Source of the DNA: Escherichia coli
GTDB lineage: Bacteria > Pseudomonadota > Gammaproteobacteria > Enterobacterales > Enterobacteriaceae
Assembly (NCBI RefSeq): GCF_044324875.1
Contig: NZ_CP172185.1
DNA: 64,000 nt
Direction: 5' to 3' (one strand)
Under the pieces are notes generated by a model, which saw nothing but the letters and a program-made list of their open reading frames with translations, was not told the DNA's origin and made no database searches. Shown piece after piece: positions 21,843 through 22,556 of the stretch. Position numbers and translations under genes: made by a program. Each line of letters opens with the position of its first letter. The first letter of the stretch is position 1.

Positions 21843-22556
21843 ATGAATGTTAATTACCTGAATGATTCAGATCTGGATTTTCTCCAGCATTGTAGTGAGG
21901 AACAATTGGCAAATTTCGCCCGGCTGCTCACCCATAATGAAAAAGGCAAAACTCGCCTCTCCAGCGTACTGATGCGCAACGAACTGTTTAAATCGATGGA
22001 AGGACATCCCGAGCAACACCGCCGCAACTGGCAGCTGATTGCCGGAGAATTACAACATTTTGGTGGCGATAGTATCGCCAACAAACTGCGTGGACACGGT
22101 AAATTGTATCGGGCCATTTTGCTCGATGTTTCAAAGCGATTGAAGCTGAAAGCCGACAAAGAGATGTCTACGTTTGAAATTGAGCAACAGTTACTGGAAC
22201 AATTTCTGCGTAATACCTGGAAGAAAATGGACGAGGAACATAAGCAGGAGTTTCTGCACGCGGTCGATGCCAGGGTGAATGAGCTGGAAGAGCTGCTGCC
22301 GCTGCTGATGAAAGACAAATTATTGGCAAAAGGCGTGTCGCATTTGCTTTCCAGCCAACTGACCCGCATTTTACGCACCCACGCAGCAATGAGCGTACTT
22401 GGGCATGGTTTGCTGCGCGGCGCGGGGCTGGGAGGCCCTGTAGGCGCGGCACTAAATGGGGTTAAAGCGGTCAGCGGCAGCGCCTATCGCGTGACGATTC
22501 CAGCCGTACTGCAAATCGCCTGCCTGCGCCGGATGGTTAGTGCCACTCAGGTCTGA
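21843..22556 (+). CDS. yaaW: Conserved hypothetical protein YaaW (237 aa)
   Basis: 237-aa ORF at the yaaW position between yaaI and satP. Confidence 0.75.
   Translation: MNVNYLNDSDLDFLQHCSEEQLANFARLLTHNEKGKTRLSSVLMRNELFKSMEGHPEQHRRNWQLIAGELQHFGGDSIANKLRGHGKLYRAILLDVSKRLKLKADKEMSTFEIEQQLLEQFLRNTWKKMDEEHKQEFLHAVDARVNELEELLPLLMKDKLLAKGVSHLLSSQLTRILRTHAAMSVLGHGLLRGAGLGGPVGAALNGVKAVSGSAYRVTIPAVLQIACLRRMVSATQV

Follow-up and report, generated by a model that had tools for sequence, protein, structure and literature searches.

Which strand encodes protein at the yaaW locus of Escherichia coli, and does the long open frame on the opposite strand represent a second gene? We addressed these questions in a stretch of 64,000 nucleotides, referred to here as the window. 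The first-pass annotation had described a 174-aa minus-strand ORF with a GTG start lying wholly within yaaW, and the ORF list of the window gives exactly these two intervals (Table 1). Upstream of the GTG the frame stays open, so that the full antisense stretch of 209 codons runs between a TAG at 22486..22484 and the TAA at 21856..21854. Antisense codon position 3 faces sense position 3 (123/213), a phase that was named '123/213' or 'frame -2' for htgA/yaaW (Delaye 2008, PMC2268670). The neighbours of yaaW are yaaI, satP and dnaK, and the locus adjoins dnaK/dnaJ.

Table 1. Positions of yaaW, the antisense frame, its natural stop sites and nearby elements in the window.
Feature	Position	Strand	Details
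yaaW CDS	21843..22556	+	237 aa, ATG; Cbp3-like chaperone / JukA family, N-terminal DUF3944
Antisense ORF of the first-pass annotation	21854..22378	-	174 aa + stop, GTG start; from the ORF list
mbiA/htgA ORF from the conserved ATG	21854..22369	-	171 aa + stop; corresponds to the 171-aa MbiA model of O157:H7 (UniProt Q8XA70)
Antisense stop-to-stop open stretch	21857..22483	-	209 codons; includes CTG 22474..22472
Antisense stop TAA of the present strain	21854..21856	-	spans yaaW codon 4/5 junction (AAT, TAC)
K-12-type antisense stop site	21884..21886	-	yaaW codon 14/15 junction; CTC, CA here = TGG (Trp); K-12 CTT, CA = TGA
Second natural antisense stop site	21932..21934	-	yaaW codon 30/31 junction, ACC to ACT; open here
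Mid-ORF antisense stop site, CFT073 / Nissle 1917 lineage	22052..22054	-	yaaW TTA to TTT, YaaW L70F; open here (TGT)
Sigma-32 -10 box CCCCATTT	22454..22461	-	perfect consensus; 85 nt upstream of the ATG; without -35 element
yaaI (DUF2541)	21414..21818	+	directly upstream of yaaW, same strand, 24 nt gap; context only

The antisense ORF had also been placed at the position of mbiA/htgA, and the coordinates bear this out, as window positions 22369..21884 correspond to K-12 mbiA (b0012) at 10830..11315, antisense in yaaW (b0011) at 10643..11356. The minus-strand ORF is mbiA/htgA, a frame that has been described and disputed before, and it is nothing new at this locus. It shares with mbiA of K-12 and of O157:H7 the locus, the strand relation, the 123/213 phase and the ATG, with no essential difference. 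The 171-aa product is identical to one member of its protein cluster (P0016) and differs from the O157:H7 protein (Q8XA70) by a single K/R exchange; identity to the cluster representative (P0001) is 99%. Compared with K-12, the antisense stop at yaaW codon 15 is absent from the present strain. Because TGG replaces TGA at that site, the ORF is 10 codons longer than the K-12 model, with 171 aa from the ATG here and 161 aa in K-12. UniProt holds MbiA/HtgA under the entries P28697 and Q8XA70.

The start of the frame has been drawn in several ways. The 174-aa length stems from an unconserved GTG three codons upstream of the ATG, where Escherichia sp. E1V33 has GTC and E. albertii has GTA; one GenBank record, that of E. 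coli O55:H7 CB9615, carries a 174-aa model. Each of the 26 Escherichia sequences compared retains the ATG at 22369..22367 (-). Annotators have given the gene model five different N-termini, among them those of the 206-aa and 199-aa models, and the CTG in the open stretch is the start used by the older 206-aa htgA models. The predicted htgA start was shifted from yaaW nucleotide 632 to 527 (Delaye 2008, PMC2268670). The curated K-12 record keeps mbiA as a CDS, and its current name both there and in UniProt is 'uncharacterized protein MbiA'. In the 23 RefSeq loci that were fetched, PGAP annotation of the antisense ORF was absent from every one, and yaaW is annotated in every record fetched.

To judge the length of the frame, we asked how often it would arise from the YaaW protein itself. 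When the protein was fixed and synonymous codons were redrawn by the codon usage of the window, an open run of at least 209 codons appeared in 4.3% of trials; when yaaW's own codons were permuted, it appeared in 11%. The antisense ORF thus exceeds its chance length only weakly. In the same antisense phase, other genes of the window contain stop-free runs of 183 (dnaK), 196 and 162 codons; dnaK also has 397 open codons, with a listed 308-aa ORF, in a different antisense phase. The earlier remark that such same-locus antisense overlaps are rare therefore stands for annotated genes and fails for ORFs, of which the window holds several antisense examples as long or longer. Unlike the other same-phase open runs in the window, the antisense ORF covers 88% of its host gene, the largest share.

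The frame is open because of the amino-acid composition of YaaW, and the phase shows how this comes about. An antisense stop requires a His, Gln or Tyr codon following a codon that ends in T (or in C, before Tyr). Half of the His/Gln/Tyr junctions are protected in that they are preceded by a Glu, Gln, Lys or Trp codon, none of which has a pyrimidine at its third position, and at the remaining vulnerable junctions the Escherichia yaaW allele simply happens to avoid T. By direct count, a stop is reachable by synonymous choice at 11 of the 22 His/Gln/Tyr junctions in the 209-codon stretch. Once open, the frame is largely shielded by purifying selection on YaaW, because most mutations that create an antisense stop also change YaaW. 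The ORF core comprises yaaW codons 72-176, or ~105 aa counted from the ATG, and offers just five single-step synonymous changes that lead to a stop.

How widely the frame is kept open was determined among yaaW loci collected by a contig scan with exact peptide patterns (17 loci; E. fergusonii, E. marmotae and S. enterica were missed by the exact patterns). E. coli, two cryptic-clade Escherichia, E. albertii and E. whittamii all have it open, and among the sampled genera Escherichia is the only one to do so. Full-length sequences of Citrobacter, Salmonella, Kluyvera, Pseudescherichia and UBA7338 carry 2 to 7 stops in the frame within yaaW codons 15-214. The core is open in 26 of 26 Escherichia sequences despite 11-14% nucleotide divergence.

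Within the species, the length of the ORF varies. Natural stop alleles were counted with 55-nt queries against 5426 complete genomes, and the counts are lower bounds since flanking polymorphism may hide carriers: the allele at yaaW codon 15 (leaving 161 aa) occurs in at least 1501 of the 5426 genomes, that at codon 31 (145 aa) in at least 248, and that at codon 71 (105 aa) in at least 154. ETEC4067 and E. albertii have the codon 31 stop, and CFT073 and Nissle 1917 are among the carriers of the codon 71 stop, a lineage in which 40% of the antisense ORF is lost. Shortened alleles amount in total to at least 1903 of 5426 genomes (~35%). These three alleles serve as positive controls, showing that the 55-nt query design works. 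The five single-step synonymous stop variants of the core were found in 0 of 5426 genomes, and two equally likely non-stop controls at the same sites were also found in 0. Because these non-stop control variants (transversions) are equally absent, the absence of core stop variants is at best weak evidence for selection against antisense stops.

The first-pass annotation had proposed to compare the constraint in each frame, naming a lack of excess constraint in the antisense frame, along with a lack of translation signal on the minus strand, as the outcomes that would speak against a gene on that strand. We found yaaW to be strongly constrained, with a pN/pS of 0.048 in 22 E. coli, and no excess in the antisense frame. 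Of the yaaW-synonymous polymorphisms in these strains, 12 of 42 are non-silent in the antisense frame, through an amino-acid exchange or a new stop; inside the ORF the count is 8 of 27. The neutral expectation is a fraction of 0.24-0.25, and neighbouring control genes are similar. Between Escherichia species, the antisense-changing fraction relative to expectation is 1.00-1.19, compared with 0.81-1.15 in genera with a broken frame. For the antisense frame, omega values up to 0.5 are rejected with p=0.03 in E. coli and p=0.013 for the albertii pair, and values up to 0.3 with p=0.002 and p=0.0003, respectively, with the reservation that the test samples mostly antisense third positions and Leu/Arg first-position changes, which are partly conservative, and so its power against weak selection is below these nominal omega limits. 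No dip in synonymous diversity was seen in the overlapped part of yaaW (0.209 per synonymous site, vs 0.229 in the non-overlapped part), and the synonymous diversity of yaaW is the highest among six neighbouring genes. The predicted antisense product changes in sequence as an unselected one would, and natural strains differ in its length. A de novo gene may, while still very young, function without measurable constraint, which counts against reading the frame as a mere shadow of yaaW.

The main evolutionary argument for htgA has been the low YaaW N/S ratio, that is, the slower rate, in Escherichia (Delaye 2008, PMC2268670). We reproduced this low ratio and found it equally strong outside the overlap (0.06-0.13 against 0.09-0.13). 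Because the signal is not specific to the overlapped region, the slower rate cannot be used as support for htgA, and we rejected it. Selection on the mother gene can produce conservation in frame -2 purely as an artefact (PMC4182739).

We also examined the signals that would be expected of an expressed gene. A consensus scan, of a kind that can miss real sites, gave no minus-strand sigma-70-like promoter upstream of the antisense ORF. For a complete sigma-32 promoter (CTTGAAA, a spacer of 13-15 nt and CCCCATNT), the best site matched 9/14, which is the chance level, compared with 12/14 for the dnaK control. No Shine-Dalgarno sequence precedes any of the candidate starts CTG, GTG and ATG, and an Rfam scan of 21000..23500 gave no match. 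The sigma-32 -10 motif CCCCATTT occurs 3 times in the 64 kb, one occurrence being at the dnaK heat-shock promoter, and 11 nt of the box region in yaaW are identical to the -10 region of the dnaK promoter. In 22 of 22 E. coli the box shows no variation; E. albertii and the cryptic clades lack it. Possibly it was this box that the heat-shock promoter mapping of 1993 picked up.

The predicted product has the character of an antisense translation. Its codon-usage LLR is -0.54 per codon, where antisense frames of real genes score -0.70 +/- 0.11 and real genes +0.15 or more, and it consists of 24.6% Ser and 9.4% Cys. Searches of Pfam, NCBIfam, PHROGs and PADLOC with the antisense protein gave no match and no DNA-binding domain. 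An AlphaFold model from the single sequence had a mean pLDDT of 28 and was without secondary structure, which for an orphan shows just that there is no confident fold. Among 5.8 billion proteins, no relatives outside Escherichia were identified (4 matches, of which P0003, covering only the last ~30% of the query, was left out of inspection). Two of the matches, P0002 and P0004, were considered as distant homologues on account of 46-52% identity and were discarded, as they lie on E. coli contigs with 95-96% DNA identity in which 12-13 indels are sequencing errors.

For mbiA, promoter activity and a transcription start site have reportedly been recorded. Later citing papers credit Fellner et al. 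2014 (FEMS Microbiol Lett 350:57) with a phenotype of a strand-specific mbiA mutant in EHEC EDL933. For htgA, Northern blots, protein labelling and promoter mapping by Missiakas et al. 1993 are cited in Delaye 2008 (PMC2268670), along with a later study that, by the same account, saw no sigma-32 induction. The pair yaaW-mbiA is among 16 'divergent excludons' of MG1655, with transcripts from both strands in at least 50% of the 58 RNA-seq data sets (PMC12288877), and an intragenic promoter in htgA/yaaW is reported to be active in vitro (PMC2731890). Going by the published RNA-seq, the antisense strand is probably transcribed. In the accessible literature we found no translation data for mbiA. 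It is cited in the same lists as the experimentally supported EHEC antisense overlapping genes nog1/citC, asa, pop/ompA, laoB and ano (Neuhaus and Scherer groups), with which it has in common an embedded antisense ORF, a restricted taxonomic range and a proposed origin by overprinting. The EHEC cases rest on Ribo-seq signals, whereas the tests of constraint for mbiA were negative here.

The plus strand encodes the real protein, the conserved YaaW, and yaaW is the gene under selection at the locus. The codon usage of yaaW is of the coding type (LLR +0.51 per codon), and YaaW matches Pfam PF03981 (7.7e-16) and PF13099 (1.2e-14). Against the PADLOC models of JukA, the Juk anti-jumbophage sensor of the Cbp3 chaperone family, it gives a full-length match (E=1.3e-57), and it has the same architecture of PF03981 with an N-terminal DUF3944. 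A search of PDB sequences with YaaW gave no match. In contrast to a Juk system, neither JukB nor another recognised effector lies beside yaaW. PADLOC gave no match for yaaI, and housekeeping genes make up the rest of the neighbourhood. The Juk preprint describes some JukA proteins as acting alone. The Escherichia jukA tested in that preprint is paired with an Xre regulator, which the yaaW locus does not have. A role of YaaW as a JukA-type phage sensor is plausible.

Considering all of these results, we read the antisense frame, with a probability of about 0.7, as a shadow ORF or a neutrally evolving proto-gene, possibly carried on an antisense RNA, that encodes no conserved functional protein. 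We infer that its product most likely lacks a selected function. The frame has in common with shadow ORFs a length explained by the composition of YaaW (P 0.04-0.11), a codon usage of the antisense type with a composition rich in Ser, Cys, Arg and Leu, and a lack of independent constraint, and the window holds further cases in dnaK and elsewhere. What sets it apart from shadow ORFs in general is its published transcription and a claimed phenotype.

Other readings were weighed as well. mbiA could be a real, recent Escherichia-specific protein gene that was overprinted on yaaW, with translation beginning at the ATG at 22369 and a product that affects biofilm formation or metabolism. It would be too young or too loosely constrained for purifying selection to show, and would need no more than its N-terminal ~105 residues. 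The open state of the ATG and of the initial ~105 codons in every Escherichia sampled, even at 11-14% DNA divergence, would fit such a gene, as would the absence of the ORF outside the genus, which agrees with a recent origin both in our comparison and in Delaye 2008 (PMC2268670). So would the EDL933 mutant phenotype, which is cited second-hand, the transcription of both strands in MG1655 (PMC12288877) and the CDS kept in the K-12 record. The antisense frame nevertheless changes at the neutral rate and yaaW has no synonymous-rate dip, ~35% of genomes have shortened versions, and a major lineage is without 40% of the ORF. Shine-Dalgarno sequence, promoter match and predicted fold are all missing, codon usage and composition are of the antisense-frame type, the length is not significant given YaaW, frame -2 conservation may be an artefact (PMC4182739), and five N-termini have been annotated. 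We consider such a gene rather improbable, and the stricter version, in which mbiA is a translated, near-neutral Escherichia-specific de novo protein on a JukA-family gene whose first ~105 residues are required, more doubtful again. [quoted passage not shown] Apart from these names on the cluster members, it can draw on the adjacent dnaK/dnaJ and on the sigma-32 -10-like box upstream. It is contradicted by the lack of a full sigma-32 promoter, of a DNA-binding or any other domain and of a predicted fold, by the neutral name in use in UniProt and the K-12 record, and by the cited literature with its report of no sigma-32 induction (through Delaye 2008, PMC2268670), and we regard it as very improbable.

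The antisense RNA rather than a protein may be what matters. Transcription against yaaW would then tune or lower YaaW through transcriptional interference or the processing of double-stranded RNA, as in an excludon, with an ORF that is incidental, a view compatible with that of a shadow ORF. Pervasive antisense transcription is common and mostly regarded as noise, which counts against a regulatory role. The listing of yaaW-mbiA as a 'divergent excludon' in MG1655 (PMC12288877) points in its favour, together with the intragenic promoter active in vitro (PMC2731890), the perfect sigma-32 -10 box specific to E. coli and the absence of protein-level constraint in the antisense frame. On the other hand, consensus scans gave no complete promoter and Rfam no family, the box does not extend to E. 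albertii and the cryptic clades, yaaW does not show the synonymous-rate dip expected from selection on RNA sequence or structure, and the later study, as described in Delaye 2008 (PMC2268670), saw no sigma-32 induction. We hold a functional antisense RNA to be unlikely, if not strongly so.

The htgA/yaaW pair is a textbook candidate for a bacterial gene born by overprinting. With the slower-rate argument found to be unspecific, antisense changes found to be neutral and about a third of sequenced E. coli carrying shortened versions, the prior for a functional MbiA is lowered, if not decisively. As yaaW is a putative JukA-type sensor, antisense control of it would be slightly more interesting than the ORF. 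If mbiA were after all a de novo protein, it would be a proto-gene caught shortly after its birth, possibly tied in function to yaaW.

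The 174-aa minus-strand ORF that the first-pass annotation described inside yaaW was found in the ORF listing exactly as claimed. Its assignment to mbiA/htgA also held, based on its position, which is that of K-12 b0012, and on the database cluster matched by its product. In the curated MG1655 record, to whose numbering the window is the reverse complement, yaaW (b0011) lies at 10643..11356 (-) and mbiA (b0012) at 10830..11315 (+), corresponding to 21843..22556 and 22369..21884 of the window, respectively. The antisense ORF is an already known feature. Position 3 of its codons faces position 3 of the sense codons, the same phase as the '123/213' phase ascribed to htgA/yaaW by Delaye et al. 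2008 (PMC2268670). Matches to the 714-nt yaaW, at 96.8-100% identity, are present in 5424 of 5426 complete E. coli genomes; the yaaW of isolate AF39 is 100% identical to that of the window.

Coordinates of yaaW, the antisense frames and associated signals
Feature	Coordinates	Strand	Description
yaaW	21843..22556	+	237 aa, ORF listing
Antisense ORF	21854..22378	-	174 aa, GTG start, ORF listing
Stop-to-stop antisense open stretch	22483..21857	-	209 codons, frame read through whole region
In-frame ATG	22369	-	three codons inside GTG
CTG, start in older database models	22474	-	
Lone perfect sigma-32 -10 box CCCCATTT	22454..22461	-	85 nt upstream of ATG; no -35
CFT073-type stop	L042 (CFT073 locus) yaaW 2432..3145; window equivalent 22052..22054		antisense TGA
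dnaK antisense ORF	20154..21080	+	308 aa, embedded in dnaK (19122..21038, -)

Which strand encodes protein here had been proposed as worth testing, and the constraint in each frame was analyzed. In 22 E. coli loci, sampled across the identity range with 3 kb of flank each, polymorphic events in the yaaW frame comprised 42 synonymous and 5 non-synonymous ones (pN/pS 0.048); protein-level selection clearly acts on the plus strand. A naive antisense dN/dS is meaningless, since two positions in three are constrained by YaaW, and we therefore conditioned the antisense test on yaaW-synonymous changes, compared with a transition-weighted neutral expectation (kappa 2.6, from fourfold-degenerate sites of six genes). 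In E. coli, an antisense amino acid was changed or a stop made in 12 of the 42 yaaW-synonymous events and in 8 of 27 inside the ORF, so that the antisense-altering fraction was 0.29-0.30 versus 0.24-0.25 expected; the control genes dnaK, yaaI and satP gave similar ratios in the same phase. The observed/expected ratios of pairs among E. coli, clade E1V33 and E. albertii were 1.00-1.19, showing no excess constraint in the antisense frame, and those of genera with a broken frame were 0.81-1.15. Antisense omega values up to 0.5 were rejected (p=0.03 for E. coli and p=0.013 for the albertii pair), as were those up to 0.3 (p=0.002 and p=0.0003, respectively), while very weak selection could escape a conditional test that mostly reads antisense third positions and Leu/Arg first-position changes. 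The synonymous diversity of yaaW, 0.212 events per synonymous site, was the highest of six neighbouring genes, with 0.209 in the overlapped part versus 0.229 in the remainder. While the N/S of YaaW is about 0.1 in Escherichia versus about 0.3 in other genera, it is equally low (0.06-0.13) in the 61 codons outside the ORF overlap, so the low rate on which the argument of Delaye rests cannot be credited to htgA.

Antisense stops in this phase form only at NNT|CAN (His/Gln) or NNY|TAY (Tyr) junctions. YaaW has 22 His/Gln/Tyr residues between the bounding stops, and 11 of them are preceded by Glu, Gln, Lys or Trp, whose codons are never pyrimidine-ended. When the YaaW protein was fixed and synonymous codons were redrawn, an open run reached 209 codons or more in 4.3% of trials with the codon usage of the window and in 11% with yaaW's own codons permuted, whereas shuffling the codon order, and hence the protein, gave such a run in only 0.2%. 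The ORF therefore stems mainly from the amino-acid sequence of YaaW. Other window genes contain same-phase open runs of 183 (dnaK), 196 and 162 codons; thus, long antisense ORFs are not rare. The rarity that the first-pass annotation attributed to such overlaps applies to annotated antisense genes and not to ORFs, given dnaK and the other long runs in the window. The dnaK antisense ORF, which sits within a 397-codon open stretch in another antisense phase, exceeds the yaaW ORF in length and illustrates how common shadow ORFs are.

The length of the antisense ORF varies among natural strains. It ends at yaaW codon 5 in the window and O157 (171 aa from the ATG), at codon 15 in K-12 (161 aa), and at codon 31 in ETEC4067 and, independently, in E. 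albertii (145 aa), while YaaW L70F (TTA to TTT) in CFT073 creates an antisense TGA mid-ORF, leaving 105 aa. Alleles were counted using 55-nt queries with the variant placed centrally, where any 28-nt megablast seed must span the variant, and the counts are lower bounds. Among 5426 complete genomes, the codon-15 stop was found in at least 1501, the codon-31 stop in at least 248 and the codon-71 stop of the CFT073 / Nissle 1917 lineage in at least 154; if these three sets do not overlap, the ORF falls below its 171-aa form in at least about 35% of complete genomes. Five single-step synonymous core stops (before yaaW codons 55, 85, 139, 167 and 172) occurred in 0 of 5426 genomes. The controls, two non-stop transversions placed at these sites, were equally absent, and therefore the absence of the core stops says nothing about selection. 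In a taxonomic scan of one genome per species, which returned 17 yaaW loci, the antisense frame was open in E. coli, two cryptic-clade Escherichia, E. albertii and E. whittamii, and the full-length genes of Citrobacter, Salmonella, Kluyvera, Pseudescherichia and UBA7338 had 2 to 7 stops within yaaW codons 15-214. The scan agrees with Delaye 2008 (PMC2268670), who limited the ORF to Escherichia and Shigella. The GTG at 22378 is variable, reading GTC in E1V33 and GTA in E. albertii, and the ATG is kept in 26 of 26 Escherichia sequences.

Searched against 5.8 billion proteins, the antisense product gave four hits, one of which is a real cluster of 14 members. P0003 is a 113-aa protein covering 30% of the query; P0002 and P0004 were rejected as relatives, their sources being E. 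coli contigs full of indel errors. The annotated N-termini follow five models (206, 199, 174, 171 and 161 aa), and no PGAP gene is placed at the antisense ORF in 23 of 23 RefSeq loci. The product, which is rich in Ser (24.6%), Cys (9.4%) and Arg (9.4%), matched no family in Pfam, NCBIfam, PHROGs or PADLOC, and its AlphaFold model exhibited no secondary structure (pLDDT 28). In a coding-versus-antisense codon model, the antisense ORF scored -0.54 bits per codon, while yaaW scored +0.51, real genes at least +0.15 and the antisense frames of 23 real genes -0.70 +/- 0.11.

Simple scans revealed no sigma-70-like promoter upstream of the ORF on the minus strand and no full sigma-32 promoter, the best sigma-32 score being 9/14, with about 5 such sites expected by chance in the stretch, compared with 12/14 for the dnaK upstream control. 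The lone -10 box lies in an 11-nt string, ACCCCATTTAGT, found at 22451..22462 (-) and at 21158..21169 (-), the latter at the dnaK heat-shock promoter, in its -10 region; the CCCCATNT motif occurs only three times in 64 kb. All 22 E. coli carry the box unchanged, while E. albertii and the cryptic clades lack it; the 1993 promoter mapping may be accounted for by this box. No Shine-Dalgarno sequence precedes any of the three candidate starts, and Rfam gave no match in the region. Downstream of the antisense stop, at a distance of about 30 nt, is a weak terminator-like hairpin (21806..21823 (-); stem of 5 bp, poor T run), and a sigma-70-like match (21825..21853 (-); TTAACA, 17-nt spacer, TATATT) lies in the yaaI-yaaW spacer. 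In the scanned region, terminator-like (2 versus 1.3 expected) and promoter-like (3 versus 1.1, sd 1.0) matches are near shuffled-sequence counts. According to ExcludonFinder, at least 50% of 58 MG1655 RNA-seq sets show transcription of yaaW-mbiA from both strands (PMC12288877), and in vitro activity was reported for an intragenic promoter at the locus (PMC2731890); therefore, antisense transcription is plausible. We found no demonstration of mbiA translation in the accessible literature.

As for the host gene, YaaW matches PF03981 (Cbp3-type chaperone), PF13099 (DUF3944) and, over its full length, the PADLOC JukA models (E=1.3e-57); a preprint (bioRxiv 10.1101/2022.09.17.508391) on the Juk anti-jumbophage system describes JukA, 'formerly YaaW', as its sensor. 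No JukB or other known effector adjoins the window yaaW, a putative sensor whose neighbours are yaaI, satP and dnaK. RefSeq/PGAP labels yaaW as 'msyB, acidic protein MsyB' in 23 of 23 PGAP-annotated loci (L001, L002, L020-L039 and L042), and NCBIfam NF007593 (PRK10236), which bears the MsyB name, gives a full-length YaaW match of 520 bits. In the curated K-12 record, the gene is yaaW, 'putative enzyme-specific chaperone'. The msyB gene proper is a separate one of 124 aa at another chromosomal site, and the MsyB label appears to come from a mislabelled family model now spreading through thousands of genomes. Elsewhere in the compared loci, the satP-mog gap is about 204 nt in NGF1 (L029, about 4430..4632) and CFT073 (L042, about 1513..1716) versus 34 nt in the window, K-12 and most strains, an excess of about 170 bases. 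The dnaK of HB-Coli0 (L031, 263..2194) has an annotated length of 1932 nt, 15 nt more than elsewhere, with many apparent differences in an ungapped comparison, which suggests an indel or divergent segment, and this locus was left out of the dnaK control.

Delaye 2008 (PMC2268670) called htgA 'controversial', noting that a later study saw no sigma-32 induction, that its start codon had been moved and that one strain carries a nonsense mutation, and htgA was taken out of the annotation over conflicting data (PMC3454372). Selection on the mother gene passively shields frame -2, so that conservation in this frame 'might be solely an artefact' (PMC4182739). Citing Fellner 2014, later papers place mbiA/yaaW with the overlapping genes 'verified by demonstrating a phenotype' in EDL933. 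That mbiA is a young, weakly constrained real gene, a reading to which this phenotype and the reach of the conditional test are relevant, appears unlikely beside the rejected omega values and the stop alleles. Taken together, the evidence points to protein-level selection in the yaaW frame only, and the antisense ORF is probably (about 0.7) a shadow ORF that evolves neutrally, is truncated in many natural strains and may be carried on an antisense transcript.
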